Assembly (NCBI GenBank): GCA_964633995.1
Contig: CAZWKN010000005.1
Coordinates: forward strand, 920 to 64,919
Length of the DNA stretch: 64,000 nt
Source: an uncultured Gammaproteobacteria bacterium
GTDB taxonomy: Bacteria; Patescibacteriota; Microgenomatia; CAZETR01; Amesbacteraceae
Reading direction: 5' to 3'
A program made the position numbers and the translations under genes. The notes beneath the pieces were generated by a model. That model was not told where the DNA came from. It did no database searches and was given only the letters and a program-made list of their open reading frames with translations. Below, piece by piece: positions 34,330 through 46,096 of the stretch (the stretch's first letter is position 1; the number at the start of each line of letters is the position of its first letter).

Positions 34330-35370
34330 ATGGCAAACGATCAAAAGAACCAGGCGATAAAAACCGCCATGGAACAAATCGAAAAACAATTTGGTAAAGG
34401 CTCGATCATGAAGTTGGGTGAAAAGTCAGAAAAGTTTCAGGTCGATGTTATCTCTAGTGGCTCAATCGCTCTTGACGTAGCTCTCGGCATTGGCGGCTTC
34501 CCCAGAGGGCGTATAACCGAAATCTACGGCCCAGAAGCTTCAGGTAAGACGACAATCGCTCTGCACTGTATCGCCGAAGCCCAAAAAGCCGGGGGAACCG
34601 CTGCTTTCATCGACGCCGAGCACGCCCTAGATCCCAGTCGGGCAGATGCCATCGGTGTAGACCTGGACAACTTATATATTTCCCAACCAGACACTGGTGA
34701 ACAAGCGTTGGAAATAGTAGAGACCTTAATTCGCTCAGGAGCTATCGACGTTATTGTTATCGATTCCGTAGCAGCCCTCGTTCCCCGCGCCGAAATCGAA
34801 GGCGAAATGGGGGATTCTGTCATGGGTGTTCAAGCTCGTCTAATGTCTCAGGCGTTGCGAAAAATTACCGGGGCCATTTCCAAATCCAAAAGCGTCGTCA
34901 TCTTTACCAACCAACTACGCATGAAAATTGGCGTTATGTTTGGTAACCCCGAGACCACCCCCGGAGGCATGGCTCTCAAATTTTATAGTTCAATAAGGAT
35001 CGACACCCGAAAAATTGAAACCCTCAAAGACGGGGATGTAGTGATCGGTTCTCGTCATCGGGCCAGGGTAGTCAAAAACAAAACCGCCCCTCCATTCCGT
35101 GTAGCCGAATTTGATATTTTAAACAACGGTGGTATTAGTAAAAGTGGCGGTCTTTTGGATGTGGGTCTTGAATTGGGCATCTTTACCAAAAAAGGTTCGT
35201 TCATATATTTTCAAGAAGCTATTATCGGTCAAGGTAAAGAAGCCGCCAGAGCTTATTTGGACGAGAATCACAAAATAGCCAAGCAAGTCGAAGAAGCAAT
35301 TTGGAAGACAGTCAAAGACAACAAAAAACCTCTTCCCAAACAGGTCGGCACCGAAATGCCCGAGGAATAA
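34330..35370 (+). CDS. recA: Recombinase RecA
   Basis: Walker [10 protein letters not shown], the RecA signature [11 protein letters not shown], and L1/L2 loop regions. Confidence 0.95.
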
Positions 35371-37413: not shown

Positions 37414-37439
37414 AAAACGGGGCCAAGGCCCCGTTTTTG
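37414..37439 (+). terminator. Rho-independent terminator after hup
   Basis: Hairpin ACGGGGCC-AA-GGCCCCGT followed by TTTTT. Confidence 0.7.
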
Positions 37440-37454
37440 GTAAAATCTTTCCAT

Positions 37455-38240
37455 ATGCGCAAATATTGGAGATTTTTTACCGTCGAGTTTCAACAGTCCG
37501 TCAACTACCGACCTGAAGCCTTCGTTTGGTTTCTATTAGAATTGGCCCCCATGTTGATAATGGTCAATCTTTCTGGATATCTTCAATCAACAGGTCGGTT
37601 AAACCACCAGCAATACAGTCAGTTTATTTTATATTTTGTCGTCAATCTTTATGTTTCCAGGCTTACCGCAGTGCATTTTGAGGACAATCTTATAGATGAC
37701 ATCAAAGACGGTAAGATAAGTTCAGGGCTCCTCAAGCCCTTTTCCTTTTATTGGCATTTACTATTTAGGGAATTTTCATGGAGACTGTCCGGGCTCATGT
37801 ATCTTATTCCAACGTTTTTATTATTAATTCCGCTTATCAATACATTAATACTTCCTCATACTACTCCAGGGATAATCTTGGCGCTTATTCCAGCTCTTGT
37901 AATCGCATATTTACAACGTTATTTTCTTGGCTGGATAATCAGCCTTCCCGCCTTTTGGTTTGACCAGTCGAAGGTCTTGGTCCATTTGCGTTGGATGGCC
38001 GAGGGAATTCTTGGTGGCGCCTGGTTACCCCTCTATCTTTTCCCCGCCTGGTGGCAGTCTTTTGCCCGACTAACACCGTTTTATTATTGGTTTTATTTTC
38101 CTACCCAGTTATTTCTCGGCAATATTACAAACATAGCCGGTCAATTTCTAATAGCCATTTTATGGGTTTTTATTCTTTATTTTATTTCTTCCTGGTTTTG
38201 GAATTTCGCTGTCAAAAGTTATTCTTCGGTTGGGGGTTAA
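37455..38240 (+). CDS. ABC-2-type transporter permease, paralog 1 of 6
   Basis: About 6 TM helices and a shared motif (I/V)SxGxLxxLLKPxSFY. Start chosen at MRKYWRFF to match the MKKY/MRKY starts of the paralogs. Confidence 0.7.
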   Translation: MRKYWRFFTVEFQQSVNYRPEAFVWFLLELAPMLIMVNLSGYLQSTGRLNHQQYSQFILYFVVNLYVSRLTAVHFEDNLIDDIKDGKISSGLLKPFSFYWHLLFREFSWRLSGLMYLIPTFLLLIPLINTLILPHTTPGIILALIPALVIAYLQRYFLGWIISLPAFWFDQSKVLVHLRWMAEGILGGAWLPLYLFPAWWQSFARLTPFYYWFYFPTQLFLGNITNIAGQFLIAILWVFILYFISSWFWNFAVKSYSSVGG

Positions 38241-38243
38241 TAT

Positions 38244-39032
38244 ATGCGCAAATATTTATCACTCTTTGCAAAATTTATCAGCCTTTCTTGGATGAGTGCC
38301 ATGGAATATCGCGCCAATTTTATTTCCTGGATGCTTGTTGATCTCGGCTGGTCGTGCATGGACTTACTGTTTACTACAGTACTTATCAACTTTACTCAGG
38401 TCATGGGATCGTGGAACAGGGGCGAAATGTTGGTTGTTTTGGGCGTTTTTCGCCTATTGGTAGTACCTGTCTGGGGTTGGATGTATCAAAGTTTTAATCT
38501 TGTTCCTAGGTATATCTCAGAAGGCCGGCTTGATTTGTTTCTTACAAAACCAGCAGATAGTCAATTTTTAATTTCGTCCCAACAATTTGGATTTTCCATT
38601 ATTCCGTCATTTTTTACTGGTATCGGGTTTGTCATATATGGATTTTTTCTCCTAGGAAAATTTCCCTCGTTTCCTTCAGTAATGTTGTCTATCTGGCTGC
38701 TTGGAGTTTCTACTCTTTTGGCGTATGGAGTATATTTCTCCATGATCGCCTATAGTTTATATGTAGAAAGATTAAACAATATCCAGCACATTTTTACTTC
38801 GCTTTACGAAGCCTCTCGTTACCCTGCCATCATTTTTTCTCCTGTACTAAGATTTATATTCTTGACTATATTGCCGATTTCCGTAATTGTTACTGTTCCC
38901 GCCCAGGCGTTATTTTCGCATGTTAAATTTTTCGACCTTGTTAGTTTTCATCTCCTGGCCATAATATTTTTCTTTGTAAGTCGCTTTATTTGGAACCGGG
39001 GTTTACGTCGTTACAGTAGCGCCTCATCATGA
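38244..39032 (+). CDS. ABC-2-type transporter permease, paralog 2
   Basis: MRKYLSLF start, motif ISEGRLDLFLTKPADSQF, C-terminal ...RRYSSASS. Confidence 0.7.
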   Translation: MRKYLSLFAKFISLSWMSAMEYRANFISWMLVDLGWSCMDLLFTTVLINFTQVMGSWNRGEMLVVLGVFRLLVVPVWGWMYQSFNLVPRYISEGRLDLFLTKPADSQFLISSQQFGFSIIPSFFTGIGFVIYGFFLLGKFPSFPSVMLSIWLLGVSTLLAYGVYFSMIAYSLYVERLNNIQHIFTSLYEASRYPAIIFSPVLRFIFLTILPISVIVTVPAQALFSHVKFFDLVSFHLLAIIFFFVSRFIWNRGLRRYSSASS

Positions 39033-39799
39033 AGAAATACTTTGTTCTGTTTAGCCAGCGCTTCTCCGAATACTCCACTTATCGCGTCAGGCTTCTGGTT
39101 ACCCTGCTGCAGGGATTCGTCACTCCATTGTTTTTACTTTTGGTTTTATCTCATGTTTCGCCCAGACCCGGTTTTACCACCTCGGGTCTAGTTAGCTACT
39201 TTTTATTAGTAGGTCTGATTTATCCACTAACCAAATCCAAAGTAAACGAATTTGTCGAGGAATATACCACGTCGGGCGACGTAAATAATTTTCTGGTCAA
39301 GCCTTTATCATTTTACAAATACATGTTAGCAAACGATCTGTCTTGGAAAATTCTCAACCTTCTAACCGTATTGCCGTTTATCATCCTTACTGGTTTTTTT
39401 ATCTTAAGAGACAATCCTGTCAATTCAAACGTGTTGGTAATTGGGACAACTGTCCTTACCACGATTATTTCGTTTTTAATTTCATTCAACTTCAGTTATC
39501 TGGTTGGCCTGTTTTCGTTTTGGTTGGACGAATTTTGGGCAATAAATAATGTTAAATTCGTAGTTGTAAATTTATTGGGTGGGGTAGTTTTGCCATACAC
39601 TTTTTTCCCTGGTTGGGCCACCCTAGTTTTAAAATATTCCCCCTTCCCGTACATGATTACTTGGCCAGTTAGGGTTATTCAGGGGCAGTTCGAGTCGCTC
39701 GAGCTATTAGTATCGTTCATCTGGCTCATCGTCTTTGCGATTTTAATCAGGTTCTTTCAAAACCAGGCCATTCAAAAATATTCGCATACTGCTAGTTAA
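39029..39799 (+). CDS. ABC-2-type transporter permease, paralog 3
   Basis: MKKYFVLF start, motif TSGDVNNFLVKPLSFYKY, C-terminal ...QKYSHTAS. Confidence 0.7.
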   Translation: MKKYFVLFSQRFSEYSTYRVRLLVTLLQGFVTPLFLLLVLSHVSPRPGFTTSGLVSYFLLVGLIYPLTKSKVNEFVEEYTTSGDVNNFLVKPLSFYKYMLANDLSWKILNLLTVLPFIILTGFFILRDNPVNSNVLVIGTTVLTTIISFLISFNFSYLVGLFSFWLDEFWAINNVKFVVVNLLGGVVLPYTFFPGWATLVLKYSPFPYMITWPVRVIQGQFESLELLVSFIWLIVFAILIRFFQNQAIQKYSHTAS

Positions 39800-39800
39800 T

Positions 39801-40589
39801 ATGAAAAAATATCTTAAATTATTTTGGGTTGTTCAACGTTCTGGTGTTGCCAAGGAGATTTCTATGCGGGGCAATTTCTTAATAACATTATTAGGTTCGG
39901 CCTGTTTTTTCTATCTCCACGTCATTTCGTTTAATTTGCTTATTAGCAAATTTGATTTTTTAGGTTGGGAAACTGGTAACCTATGGGTTATGATGTACAC
40001 GTTTGAAATCTTTACTTACCTGGCGTTTTATTTTTTTTGGAAAGGACTTCAAAAAACACCTCAGGAAATTGGCACGGGAGCGTTTGACATCATTTTAGCC
40101 AAGCCTTTTAACACCAGGTTCGTTGCCCTTTTCAGAAATGGCTCACTTCACAATTTAATCTGTGCGTTGTTGGGCGTTTGTTATCTGGTTTATACTTTGC
40201 GTTATTACCATGTTCCAACGACATCTTTGTCAGTTGTTGTGTACGTTTTGTCCCTGGCTGTAAGTCTGTGGATTTTCCACTGCCTATCTGTTTTATTCAT
40301 TTGCCTGAACTTTAAAAATGGTTATGTTCCCGGGACGTCAACGGCGCCTTTTGAGATTCAAGAGGTTTTCAAATATCCAGCATCAGTTTTTGAACAATCG
40401 GGATTGCTTCTACGCATCTTGATTATCCCCTTCGCGCTCCTAGTTACCGTCCCCACCGCCAGTTTGATATCAAAACCCTTATCGCCTTCGCTTTTATCAA
40501 CCTATCTCCTCACCTTTGTCGTTTTGACCCTCTGGTCTGGTTGGACTTGGAAGTCTTCACTTCGTCACTACAGTAGCGCCTCCTCGTAA
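39801..40589 (+). CDS. ABC-2-type transporter permease, paralog 4
   Basis: MKKYLKLF start, motif GTGAFDIILAKPFNTRF, C-terminal ...RHYSSASS. Confidence 0.7.
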   Translation: MKKYLKLFWVVQRSGVAKEISMRGNFLITLLGSACFFYLHVISFNLLISKFDFLGWETGNLWVMMYTFEIFTYLAFYFFWKGLQKTPQEIGTGAFDIILAKPFNTRFVALFRNGSLHNLICALLGVCYLVYTLRYYHVPTTSLSVVVYVLSLAVSLWIFHCLSVLFICLNFKNGYVPGTSTAPFEIQEVFKYPASVFEQSGLLLRILIIPFALLVTVPTASLISKPLSPSLLSTYLLTFVVLTLWSGWTWKSSLRHYSSASS

Positions 40590-40608
40590 TTTGGGATAAA
40601 ATCACCAC

Positions 40609-41592
40609 ATGTCTATCATTTCTGTAAAAAATCTCAAAAAATATTACAAGGTCCACCAAAAGGAGCCTGGTCTTTCTGGTTCGTTCAAATCGTTATTTCA
40701 CAGAAAATATTACGACGTCAAAGCCGTCGACGATGTTTCTTTCCACATCGACGAAGGCGAGTTAGTCGGCTTCATAGGTCCCAACGGCGCAGGCAAGACC
40801 ACCACCCTAAAAGTTCTCTCGGGCCTTTTGTACCCCTCCTCGGGTGATGTGTCCGTTTTGGGATTCAGACCCTGGGACCGAAAACCGGCTTTTCAAAAGC
40901 AATTTAGTCTGGTCATGGGTCAAAAGAATCAACTGTGGTGGGATTTGCCGGCTATCGAGTCGTTTATTCTCAATAAAGAGATTTACGAAGTTCCCAACGC
41001 CCAGTACAAAAAAACGCTTGACGAACTTGTGGAATTATTAGAAGTCTCAGATTTTCTCAAAGTTCAGGTTCGCAAACTATCTTTAGGCCAGCGTATGAAA
41101 ATGGAACTGATAGCGGCCCTCATCCATTCTCCAAAAATATTGTTTCTGGATGAACCCACCATAGGACTTGATGTGGTCATGCAAAAAAAGATGCGCGATT
41201 TTATCAGAGACTACAATCAAAAATATAATTCCACAATCATCCTTACCTCTCATTACATGGATGATGTGAAGGAATTATGTAAACGGGTGGTGGTTATCGA
41301 TAAAGGCAAGCTTCTTTTCGACGGAGCTTTGGATGAGATAGTTAAAAAATATGCTAATCATAAACTAATCACTGTCATTTTCGACAAAGAAGTAGCCAAA
41401 ACAGATCTAAAAAAAATCGGTGAAATCAAAGAGTTCTCCTATCCCAAGGCAGTGATAATGGTCAAAAGAGACCTGGTAAACACTTCAGCCTCCAAACTCC
41501 TGCAGGATTTTCCGGTAGCAGATTTGAATATCGAGGAACCTTCCATTGAAGACATCATTCGGGAGGTCTTCACCGGCAAAGACCTTGCATGA
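40609..41592 (+). CDS. ABC transporter ATP-binding protein (single NBD with a roughly 90-aa C-terminal extension)
   Basis: Walker A GPNGAGKTT, signature LSLGQRMK, Walker B ILFLDEPTIGLD, H-loop TSHYM. Confidence 0.9.
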   Translation: MSIISVKNLKKYYKVHQKEPGLSGSFKSLFHRKYYDVKAVDDVSFHIDEGELVGFIGPNGAGKTTTLKVLSGLLYPSSGDVSVLGFRPWDRKPAFQKQFSLVMGQKNQLWWDLPAIESFILNKEIYEVPNAQYKKTLDELVELLEVSDFLKVQVRKLSLGQRMKMELIAALIHSPKILFLDEPTIGLDVVMQKKMRDFIRDYNQKYNSTIILTSHYMDDVKELCKRVVVIDKGKLLFDGALDEIVKKYANHKLITVIFDKEVAKTDLKKIGEIKEFSYPKAVIMVKRDLVNTSASKLLQDFPVADLNIEEPSIEDIIREVFTGKDLA

Positions 41593-42389
41593 AAAAATAC
41601 CTCACAATTTTCTCCCTCTCGTTTCAAAACGAATTTACCTACAGATTCAACTTTATCCTTTGGCGTTTAAGAAATGTTCTTAGGGTTTGCATGACTATTT
41701 TTTTGTGGAATGTTGTTTTCTCTGCCAGAAGTTCTGCCTTTGGTTATTCCAAGGCACAACTAATGGGTTACGTATTTTTAGTTCTTATTGTTCAGGCCTT
41801 TGTTACAGCAGCTCCGTCAAACGACAATATTGGAGGGGAAATTAGCAATGGTGACCTTTCAAATTACTTAGTCAAACCCGTAAATTACATAAGTTATTGG
41901 CTCACCCGTGATCTTGCCAGTAAACTGTTAAATATTCTTTTTGCGGTTTTGGAAATTACAGTAATACTCTTTCTTTTCAGACCCGAAATTAGCATTCCCC
42001 TGGTACTGCAATCGCTTGTTGTAGGAGTTATGGTATGGTTCATTGGAGCGGGTATATTTTTCTTTATTACCAAACTTGCGGTATTCACTGCTTTTTGGAT
42101 ACCCGAAAACACCTGGGGGTTAATGTTTACCGTAATGGTGTTCTTGGAAATGCTGTCAGGGAGCATGTTTCCCTTAGATGTTTTACCTCATTCTCTTCAA
42201 TCCGCATTACAGTTTACACCGTTTCCCTATCTAGTTTATTACCCTATAGGTATTTTAATCGGCCATATTCGAGGTCAGGCAATGTTGCAGGTTTTGCTTG
42301 GGTCGGTTGTATGGTTGGCTATCTCCTATTTTTTGTCACAAAAAGTTTGGCATGCAGGATTAAAAATTAATTCGGCTAACGGTAAGTAA
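41589..42389 (+). CDS. ABC-2-type transporter permease, paralog 5
   Basis: MKKYLTIF start, motif ISNGDLSNYLVKPVNYISY. Confidence 0.7.
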   Translation: MKKYLTIFSLSFQNEFTYRFNFILWRLRNVLRVCMTIFLWNVVFSARSSAFGYSKAQLMGYVFLVLIVQAFVTAAPSNDNIGGEISNGDLSNYLVKPVNYISYWLTRDLASKLLNILFAVLEITVILFLFRPEISIPLVLQSLVVGVMVWFIGAGIFFFITKLAVFTAFWIPENTWGLMFTVMVFLEMLSGSMFPLDVLPHSLQSALQFTPFPYLVYYPIGILIGHIRGQAMLQVLLGSVVWLAISYFLSQKVWHAGLKINSANGK

Positions 42390-42390
42390 T

Positions 42391-43170
42391 ATGAAGCATC
42401 TAAGAGTCGTCCGATTATATTTCTCAAACTCCTTTCAGGGTATGATTACCCACCCAATTGGTTTTTTGATTTTTTTCTTTAGCAAAATAACTAGATACTC
42501 GCTTTTTATCGCGTTTTTAATCTTTCTTACCAGAAGCATTTCTAATGTAGGTGGATTCACCTCCTCGCAAATATTGATCTTTTATCTAACCTTCAATTTA
42601 ATTGATACCATAGGGCAAATGCTTTTTAGGGAAGTCTATCGTTTCCGGCAATTAATTGTATCTGGGGACTTCGATATGGTTCTGGCCAAGCCCTTTCCAC
42701 CGCTACTAAGAGTATTAGTTGGCGGGCCGGATTTTATCGACATGGGCATTTTACTCATTCTTATTAGTGTCATGTGTTACTACTTTTTGTTTGTAGTTCA
42801 TCCATCGCTAAGTTTGATTCTTTTATATTTATTGCTGATAGTCAATTCGCTGGTGATTTCCACCGCTTTTCACATACTTATTTTAGCCGTTGGGATATTG
42901 ACTACGTCAATTGATCACTTGGTAATGATTTACCGGGACATCACAGCTCTCATGCGCATTCCAGTAGATTTTTTTCCCGGATCACTGCGCATGTTATTCA
43001 CTTTTGTGATTCCCATCGGAATAATGTTTACTTTTCCGGCTAAAGCCCTTATGGGTCTGCTTTCTCCTCAAAACATGTTACTTTCGCTTGTCGTCGCGTT
43101 CGTTTTTTGTTACTTATCTTTTACTCTTTGGAAGTTTGCCCTTTCTCGTTATTCATCCGCCGGTTCGTAG
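42391..43170 (+). CDS. ABC-2-type transporter permease, paralog 6
   Basis: MKHLRVVRLYF start, motif VSGDFDMVLAKPFPPLL, C-terminal ...SRYSSAGS. Confidence 0.7.
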   Translation: MKHLRVVRLYFSNSFQGMITHPIGFLIFFFSKITRYSLFIAFLIFLTRSISNVGGFTSSQILIFYLTFNLIDTIGQMLFREVYRFRQLIVSGDFDMVLAKPFPPLLRVLVGGPDFIDMGILLILISVMCYYFLFVVHPSLSLILLYLLLIVNSLVISTAFHILILAVGILTTSIDHLVMIYRDITALMRIPVDFFPGSLRMLFTFVIPIGIMFTFPAKALMGLLSPQNMLLSLVVAFVFCYLSFTLWKFALSRYSSAGS

Positions 43171-43174
43171 TATC

Positions 43175-43816
43175 ATGGTTTCAGTGCCTAAGTGGAAAAA
43201 ATTAGTTGTTGGGTTTGGTACTGCCACGGCCATTAGTATCGCCAGTTTGCCTTATTTCATTGGTGAAAAAGTAGTCGATGTTAAAGACGGCGATTCTTTT
43301 GTCTTACAAAATAGACAAATGGTCAGGTTGTTTGGTGTCGACGCCCCCGAGAAAGGGAACTGCTACTCCGAGGAGTCAAAAGCCTATTTGACCAAACTAA
43401 TTATGGGAAAAAGGATAATTTTGCGCCAACCCATAACCGACCAATTTCGTAGAGTCGTTGCCTTAGTCTATCTGCCCAATGGCAAATTGATTAATGCAGA
43501 AGTTGTAAGAAATGGCTTTGCAGTATTTACCAGGAGTGGTCAAGGCGAAACCATGGATATGAAATCAGCCAACGAGTATGCACGGGCCAACAATCTTGGA
43601 ATATTTAGCGCCAAGTGTTACGGCTTTAATCCTCCCGACCCCACGTGTGTTATCAAGGGCAATTTGGATCGGGACAAAAAACAATTAACATACATGCTCC
43701 CCGGCTGTTCATATTACGCCAAAACAGCCATTGAGCAATTCCGGGGTGAAAAGTGGTTTTGCACAGAAACGGAAGCCCAAAAATCCGGCTTTACGAAACA
43801 TTTTACTTGCAGGTAA
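43175..43816 (+). CDS. Membrane-anchored or secreted thermonuclease (SNase-like) with a Cys-rich C-terminal domain
   Basis: N-terminal TM, then SNase motifs DGDSFVL...VRLFGVDAPEKG...RRVVALVYLPNGKLINAEVVRNGFA. A C-terminal roughly 70-aa segment carries 4 Cys. Start trimmed to MVSVPK. Confidence 0.7.
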   Translation: MVSVPKWKKLVVGFGTATAISIASLPYFIGEKVVDVKDGDSFVLQNRQMVRLFGVDAPEKGNCYSEESKAYLTKLIMGKRIILRQPITDQFRRVVALVYLPNGKLINAEVVRNGFAVFTRSGQGETMDMKSANEYARANNLGIFSAKCYGFNPPDPTCVIKGNLDRDKKQLTYMLPGCSYYAKTAIEQFRGEKWFCTETEAQKSGFTKHFTCR

Positions 43817-45793: not shown

Positions 45794-46096
45794 TCCACCT
45801 GGAGACCGTGCGTCTATGCCTCCACAGTCCGGCTTGCCGGATGAAGGGGTAAGGAAAGTCCGGACAGCAGAAGGCAGGGTACCCCGCCGATGAGGCGGGG
45901 ACGCGCAAGCGCTAGATAGTGCCACAGAGACAACGACTCATCCCGCCAATGGCGGGAAAGAGGGTGAAAAGAGGAAAACCTTACCCGCTGCAACCTCCGA
46001 AATGGGTGGGTAGCCTTCCCCAATACCCAAAAGCTTGAGGGCGCAAGATAGATTGACGCATTAAAACAGAATCCGGCTTACCAGTTTCCAGGTGTA
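45794..46096 (+). ncRNA. rnpB: RNase P RNA (bacterial type A), compact roughly 300 nt
   Basis: Conserved P4 strands GGAAAGTCCGGAC (5') and ACAGAATCCGGCTTA (3'). P1 pairing CACCTGGA/TCCAGGTG at the ends. Also ...GCCACAGAGACAA...CCCGCCAATGGCGGG...AGGGTGAAAAGAGG... and GCTTGAGGGCGCAAGATAGATTGAC. Confidence 0.9.

Follow-up and report, generated by a model that had tools for sequence, protein, structure and literature searches.

How many membrane partners can a single ATPase of the ABC-2 class serve? The question is raised by a locus in the 64-kb stretch of contig CAZWKN010000005.1 analysed here (hereafter the window), in which seven tightly packed co-directional genes, all on the + strand between positions 37455 and 43170, encode six permeases of the family PF06182 (DUF990) and one ATP-binding cassette (ABC) ATPase, hereafter the nucleotide-binding domain (NBD). 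The host belongs to Candidatus Amesbacteria and is a tiny-genome groundwater bacterium. As set out below, the six permeases form three ordered pairs of two subtypes around the NBD, and this multi-cassette architecture, which is no artefact, recurs across the lineage and is unusual among ABC-2 systems. We think it fairly probable, with some reserve, that one ATPase dimer energises alternative cognate permease heterodimers with different substrates.

Six permeases in three ordered pairs

The array begins with P1 (37455-38240, +), for which a longer reading from a TTG at 37437 is possible, and continues with P2 (38244-39032, +), P3 (39029-39799, +), which shares its first 4 nt with the end of P2, and P4 (39801-40589, +). 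The NBD gene follows (40609-41592, +), its stop overlapped by 4 nt by the start of P5 (41589-42389, +), and P6 (42391-43170, +) closes the array. From P1 through P6, the NBD included, the gene junctions are thus +3, -4, +1, +19, -4, and +1 nt. The seven genes are probably co-expressed from one operon; a scan for promoters and terminators gave counts at the level of shuffled sequence and did not resolve the operon boundaries. No gene for a binding protein is present in the locus, and a domain search of the locus proteins detected no EcfT or S-component families.

All six permease open reading frames (ORFs) are intact, at 256-266 aa, and all six match PF06182 (ABC2_membrane_6) above the Pfam gathering score of 22 bits, with 65 bits for P1, 132 for P2, 50 for P3, 86 for P4, 77 for P5, and 117 for P6 (E 3e-13 to 5e-38), while no curated NCBIfam family matched any of the six. 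The NBD matches PF00005 (ABC_tran) at 94 bits and is of the DrrA/NatA-like kind, extended at its C-terminus by about 90 aa; its best NCBIfam match, TIGR01188 drrA, scores 214 bits, below the cut-off of 312. The window encodes no other ABC ATPase. A first-pass annotation, made from the letters and their ORFs, had described four permease genes, an NBD gene and two more permease genes in one direction, with products of about 260 aa and about six transmembrane (TM) helices, and had assigned the permeases to DUF990/ABC2_membrane_6, proposing a hidden Markov model search as a check. The coordinates and lengths above and the six TM helices of the P6 model described below agree with that description, and the search returned no unrelated families. 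The same annotation had noted a long shared motif and, in most of the permeases, a common YS-type C-terminus. The core of the motif, G-x5-L-x-K-P, is exact in all six, and the full form holds approximately, P6 having 'IVSG' in place of 'ISxG'; the C-terminal Y-S-(S/H)-x-x-(S/G) is found in five of the six permeases (RRYSSASS in P2), with P5 as the exception.

Pairwise BLASTP comparisons separated the permeases into two subtypes, A (P1, P3, and P5) and B (P2, P4, and P6). Identities are 23-29% within subtype A (E 1e-17 to 1e-22) and 23-25% within subtype B (E 1e-8 to 1e-14), and matches between A and B are far weaker than those within a subtype. The nearest paralogs of P1 in the window are P5 and P3, P3 and P5 share 29% identity, and P2 groups with P4 and P6. 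The order of the locus is therefore A-B, A-B, NBD, A-B, and the two subtypes are ancient. Across all the permease copies of the window, protein identity is 17-29%, and no similarity between the copies was found at the DNA level. Additionally, an independent Logan assembly (SRR8893623) has the identical order from P1 to P5. Because the copies lack DNA similarity and the independent assembly keeps their order, an assembly artefact and a recent tandem duplication were both rejected.

In the DUF990 family, one ATPase gene is usually accompanied by two permease genes (PMC5417439, PMC6003355), as the first-pass annotation had stated. The only characterised member, the Ethyl Viologen Exporter (EVE; TCDB 3.A.1.141), exports viologens (PMC5417439), and the cyanobacterial system is the only one with documented viologen export. 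We compared the window locus to these systems (Synechocystis EvrABC, Bacillus cereus BC0513-0515, and the natA-COG3694-COG4587 operons) and found the same PF06182 permeases with both subtypes and the same motifs, the same type of NBD, and the same core order, NBD-A-B. Over its full length (322 aa), the NBD shares 46% identity with its counterpart in a canonical system on a B. cereus plasmid. In the canonical operons, permeases of the COG4587 and COG3694 types stand side by side, and the window's A and B permeases align with the first and second permeases, respectively, of Bacillus and Bradyrhizobium, with P5 aligning with the first permease of the canonical NBD-A-B operons. Since the canonical order outside the Candidate Phyla Radiation (CPR) is also NBD-A-B, NBD-P5-P6 corresponds to the canonical transporter, to which P1-P2 and P3-P4 have been added. 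The canonical systems have one A-B pair per NBD, whereas the window has three and its relatives up to four, and the extra pairs of the window lie upstream of the NBD. Among the plasmid records matched by P2, 57 of 57 carry a single B-type gene. By every sequence criterion tested, then, the locus belongs to the PF06182/DUF990 (EVE) family and departs from it only in gene stoichiometry. In Firmicutes, natA-COG3694-COG4587 operons lie under a ppGpp riboswitch of ykkC subtype 2a (PMC6003355), in contrast to the window, where an Rfam scan at the gathering threshold found no riboswitch upstream of the array or elsewhere. In the searchable literature we found family listings and the riboswitch association, but no description of multi-cassette DUF990 arrays.

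Two canonical NBD-A-B operons outside the CPR have neighbours of some interest. The B. cereus plasmid NZ_CP063159.1 (locus L082, 183656-194441) carries its operon inside a biosynthetic cluster with queC, queD, queE, and folE as well as genes for glycosyltransferase, carbamoyltransferase, methyltransferase, and deacetylase activities, and this gene set looks like one for making a deazapurine nucleoside. Likewise, the operon of Bradyrhizobium pUSDA123-1 (L083) lies in a nonribosomal peptide synthetase/MbtH cluster. By analogy, these clusters hint at a role of the DUF990 family in product export or self-resistance.

Cassettes and their ATPase across the Microgenomates

Relatives of the array were gathered as 80 loci (numbered with the prefix L) from a scan of species-representative genomes, and comprise metagenome-assembled genomes (MAGs) of Amesbacteria, Daviesbacteria, Gottesmanbacteria, Chisholmbacteria, Shapirobacteria, Woesebacteria, Beckwithbacteria, and Dojkabacteria. 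Locus ORFs were classed by their best match to the window proteins, and permeases were detected by phmmer with six queries, so that the permease counts given here are lower bounds. The neighbourhood is conserved as recA-recX-rny-array-(miaB)-miaA-AI-2E permease. An orthologue of P5-P6 lies directly 3' of the NBD in nearly all 80 loci, and in four loci the NBD is present with no permease detectable by this search.

We would like to note that many of the MAG records are titled 'uncultured Gammaproteobacteria' or 'Pseudomonadales' (L002, L011, L012, L015, L019-L024, and others). These have the Microgenomates recA-rny-array-miaA synteny and an NBD 70-84% identical to that of the window, and their taxonomic labels look wrong.

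Clustering of the 267 permease ORFs from these loci yielded two superclusters, A and B, each with discrete clades that combine into a small set of cassettes. The core cassette, A1-B1, is represented in the window by P5-P6. The alpha cassette, A3-B2, is widespread and corresponds to P1-P2; orthologues of P1 occur in L004, L008, L024, and L067 at 42-65% identity. The gamma cassette, A5-B3, corresponds to P3-P4 and is found only in Amesbacteria-like genomes, with orthologues of P3 restricted to L004, L007, L012, L013, L021, and L067, and the P4-type gene in relatives always comes after the A5 gene. Absent from the window are the widespread beta cassette (A2-B2), the A4-B2 cassette of Gottesmanbacteria, which sits between the NBD and the core pair, and a further clade pair, A6-B4.

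The pairing of A with B is nearly without exception. Across the 80 loci, an A gene is followed directly by a B gene 128 times, two B genes never adjoin, and two A genes do so only twice, in both cases as the parts of a split gene. Distances among the A parts track those among the B parts (Spearman rho 0.68, against a permutation maximum of 0.08), and in 123 of the 128 pairs the nearest relative of the B subunit in another genome is partnered by the same A clade. The junction within a pair has a median gap of -4 nt and is translationally coupled. This co-evolution indicates that the cassettes are inherited and duplicated as A-B units, and argues for cognate heterodimers. The two split A-type genes (L014 4781-5511 and L046 8632-9464) each consist of two overlapping ORFs and are probably frameshifts, either pseudogenes or sequencing errors.

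The number of cassettes varies. Considering the 39 loci whose sequence extends at least 6.5 kb upstream and at least 5 kb downstream of the NBD, four permease genes near the NBD is the commonest count (21 loci), followed by two (11 loci) and six (4 loci), with one locus each having none, three, and seven; thus, 26 of the 39 have four or more. Accessory A-B cassettes number from zero to three per locus, such that two pairs in total are commonest, three are a minority, and four occur. The four-pair case is Amesbacteria GW2011_GWC1_47_15 (L004), in which alpha, beta, gamma, and core cassettes surround one NBD, with seven intact permease ORFs and an eighth cut at the contig end. The first-pass annotation had regarded the locus as an unusual expansion of six paralogs for one NBD and had proposed examining related genomes. 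Six permeases per NBD stands, and the layout does depart from the canonical single pair, but the six are not equivalent, being three A-B cassettes, and the expansion is not specific to this genome, being instead a variable feature across the class of Microgenomates. Extra cassettes are present in many of the related genomes and are not assembly duplications of an ordinary pair.

Within Amesbacteria nearly every accessory combination can be found: alpha with gamma in the window and L067, all three in L004, alpha with beta in L009 and L014, gamma with beta in L012, alpha alone in L008 and L011, gamma alone in L007 and L013, beta alone in L002, L005, and L010, and no accessory cassette in L003 and L017. 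The last two retain remnants just upstream of the NBD, namely a 69-aa C-terminal piece of a B2 gene at 70% identity in L017 and a 41-aa N-terminal piece of an A2 gene in L003. These combinations and remnants fit differential loss from a multi-cassette ancestor, and the cassette duplications themselves are ancient and distinct from recent tandem duplication.

Two kinds of gene were seen between the accessory cassettes and the NBD in some Amesbacteria-like loci. A Fic-domain gene, recognised by eye from the motif HPFADGNGRVGR, lies there in L010 (6562-7524, +) and L007 (6045-6878, +). The L010 Fic ORF ends in '...VVYSSASS', which is the conserved tail of a B-type permease, suggesting that the Fic gene was inserted into, or replaced, a former cassette. 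In L002 (5944-7404, -) and L012 (4420-5766, -), the same position holds a gene on the opposite strand for a two-NBD ATPase that is ABC-F-like, as judged from its sequence alone.

The ATPase and its membrane partners differ in how well they are conserved. Close homologues of the NBD, at 76-86% identity, are from Candidatus Amesbacteria and other Microgenomates (CPR/Patescibacteria). Across the Microgenomates, identity to the window protein is 68-84% for the NBD, comparable to RecA (window 34330-35370) at 67-89%, whereas MiaA, at 36-63%, is far less conserved. For the core subunits P5 and P6 the range is 33-62%, and for the accessory subunits 24-65%. On these figures, the NBD ranks with the most constrained proteins that these genomes encode, and its membrane partners are fast-evolving. 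Such strong conservation fits a hub subunit held in place by several partners.

A proposed shared motor and its rivals

A search of PDB sequences with a profile of the six paralogs gave no match even at E <= 10, and a structure was predicted with AlphaFold2 for P6, alone among the six permeases, from 74 aligned sequences. The model is confident (predicted local distance difference test score, pLDDT, 85.6; predicted template-modelling score, pTM, 0.81). In it, an N-terminal interface helix precedes six long TM helices, further short helices occupy the TM2-TM3 and TM5-TM6 connections, and the chain ends in a C-terminal tail. These elements match the type V architecture as described for TarG(H) (PMC11971408). 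Foldseek ranked Wzm and KpsM best, with probability 1.0 and template-modelling scores of 0.60-0.66 (query-normalised) or 0.62-0.69 (target-normalised), followed by ABCG2, ABCH, PmtCD, NosY, and CcmB; the top hits Wzm, KpsM, and ABCG2 had probabilities of 0.99-1.0. The predicted fold of P6 is therefore that of a type V (ABC-2) exporter.

Mapped onto the P6 model, the residues conserved in all ten cassette clades are R22 at the boundary of the interface helix and TM1, G92, L98, K100, and P101 in the loop between TM2 and TM3, which is positively charged and takes the position of the coupling helix, and W247 and Y254 together with the C-terminal tail. All of these are predicted to lie on the cytoplasmic side, at the interface helix, the coupling helix, and a C-terminal interface element. 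Three prolines of the re-entrant region are also conserved across the cassette clades. All of the cassettes thus retain the elements that touch the NBD in solved type V transporters.

The first-pass annotation had suggested several alternative TM dimers on a common motor, with possible substrate diversification, and this idea still accounts best for the locus. We propose the following working of the locus. The single ATPase gene would supply an NBD homodimer as the motor, and NBD-P5-P6 would form the canonical transporter, with an A-B heterodimer as its membrane domain. P1-P2 and P3-P4 would each provide one more cognate A-B heterodimer, docking on the same NBD dimer through the N-terminal interface helix, the TM2-TM3 loop with G-x5-L-x-K-P, and the C-terminal Y-S-S-A-S tail. 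The outcome would be three alternative transporters with one motor, presumably for different substrates, and from one to four in the relatives. We infer the sharing of the NBD from gene content only, and heterodimer formation, transport direction, and substrate diversification are likewise our interpretation. Accessory cassettes with an NBD of this type of their own were found in none of the loci sampled, and translational coupling of the window's genes also speaks for sharing. As for direction, the type V fold, the lack of a binding protein in the locus, and the presence of non-CPR homologues in biosynthetic clusters suggest that the system probably exports or flips its substrate, likely a hydrophobic, lipid-linked, or polymeric molecule.

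Several observations weigh against a shared motor. The canonical permeases of Bacillus and Bradyrhizobium keep the interface residues too, so these motifs are family-wide and would persist even with a different NBD of the same kind; their conservation is consistent with NBD sharing and does not discriminate. Unrelated ABC ATPases are encoded near some of the loci (L015, L070, L074, L075, and L080), and our NBD counts cover the loci and the 64-kb window, such that a second orphan NBD elsewhere in the genome is possible. Sharing also needs a high ratio of NBD to transmembrane domain (TMD) expression from a single internal gene, for which the sequence offers no evident means. Finally, in L021 a gamma cassette (A5-B3) lies between recA and recX (1154-2726), about 5 kb upstream of the NBD, which means that co-operonic linkage with the NBD is not obligatory and that cassettes can relocate.

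The last of these points, together with the other ABC ATPases near related loci and the much wider conservation of the core pair than of any accessory cassette, would agree with only P5-P6 using this ATPase, the accessory pairs relying on another NBD elsewhere or on none at all, as immunity, sensor, or scaffold membrane proteins. Nevertheless, we consider this arrangement unlikely, as the accessory pairs keep every family-wide cytoplasmic interface motif and share a locus with this NBD wherever sampled, usually abutting it, and a second ABC ATPase was not found in the window. We also know of no NBD-independent role for the PF06182 family. Sharing of the motor might alternatively be combinatorial, any A subunit joining any B subunit to give up to nine TMD dimers instead of three cognate pairs. 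All A and B subunits do have the same fold and conserved motifs and are probably co-expressed from one operon, but the tight co-evolution of partners described above, the gain and loss of cassettes as A-B units, and the translational coupling within pairs all speak for fixed partners, and such mixing strikes us as quite improbable.

That the extra copies are merely decaying or non-functional duplicates we regard as very improbable. Cassettes have indeed been lost with remnants left behind in L003 and L017, and A genes are split in L014 and L046, yet all six window ORFs are intact and above the Pfam threshold, and both accessory cassettes are intact in other species at 41-65% identity; intact orthologues at such divergence are incompatible with neutral decay. 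There is practically no chance left for an assembly artefact or a recent tandem duplication, which the divergence of the copies and the independent assembly already refute and which the presence of the same cassettes in many other genomes contradicts as well.

Our preferred reading, one NBD for several cognate A-B heterodimers, has parallels among other ABC systems. NBD sharing is documented for type I sugar importers and for energy-coupling factor (ECF) transporters. That MsmX and MsmK each serve several TMD sets is established (PMC7658222), and the principle of MsmX, MsmK, and MsiK is the one proposed here for the window locus. Those, however, are type I sugar importers with substrate-binding proteins, and their orphan NBD gene lies away from the permease operons, whereas the window system has a predicted type V fold in P6, no binding-protein gene, and its NBD inside a tandem array. 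Group II ECF transporters are alike in their modular logic, a conserved energising module (EcfAA'T) with exchangeable substrate-specific membrane subunits (S components), but their folds and subunits are unrelated to those of the window. By analogy, then, the locus can be likened to multitask-ATPase and ECF-type modular systems, although it is a member of neither. The type V exporters Wzm-Wzt, KpsMT, and TarGH, and also ABCG2, share the predicted TMD fold of P6, including the interface helix, six TM helices, TM2-TM3 coupling loop, and TM5-TM6 re-entrant helices. Sequence identity to these exporters is only 10-13%, and their TMDs are homodimers of one gene, in contrast to the putative A-B heterodimers and multiple cassettes of the window system.

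If up to four different type V membrane-domain heterodimers do run on one NBD, the sharing of NBDs reaches the exporter-type ABC-2 class as well, and nature has provided a panel of three or four TMD pairs, at about 25% identity, that fit one ATPase. Such a panel would be useful for defining the minimal NBD-TMD interface. CPR organisms have very few recognisable transporters, and this locus, with its housekeeping neighbourhood and an ATPase evolving as slowly as RecA, is one of the most conserved Microgenomates transport systems. The gain and loss of cassettes between close relatives is the pattern expected for functions in envelope composition or host association. More speculatively, and with more doubt than conviction, we suggest that the Microgenomates may have made the DUF990 type V exporter ECF-like, with a hub ATPase as conserved as RecA and one to four fast-evolving A-B cassettes that vary by lineage, the repertoire setting which envelope or host-interaction molecules are moved by the episymbiont. 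The type V/ABC-2 class would thereby gain its first multitask NBD, and no motor before it would have been seen lying within a tandem array of the alternative partners that it drives. As the organisms are uncultivated, the immediate impact of these findings is limited.

The downstream nuclease and other neighbours

A gene for an SNase-family nuclease (43175-43816, +) begins 4 nt after P6 and is probably co-transcribed with the array. Its product matches PF00565 at 53.7 bits, has a C-terminal 'sunset' domain (NF051437, 33 bits), and carries an N-terminal hydrophobic anchor; it is membrane-anchored or secreted. The thermonuclease placed immediately downstream by the first-pass annotation is thus present and of the expected family, but it is not a conserved partner of the array. 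In relatives, either miaB or nothing lies between the core pair and miaA, and for this reason a role of the nuclease as a conserved functional partner was rejected. An SNase gene occurs near the array in only three of the 80 other loci (L012 588-1208, L011 1445-2122 on the - strand, and L048 244-921 on the - strand), and since its position and strand differ in each of them, the association is loose.

The remaining neighbours of the array are housekeeping genes and give no clue to its cargo. Directly after the gene for the AI-2E family permease lies an RNase P RNA of class A (45798-46096, +; RF00010, 113 bits), the sole match of the Rfam scan in the window.

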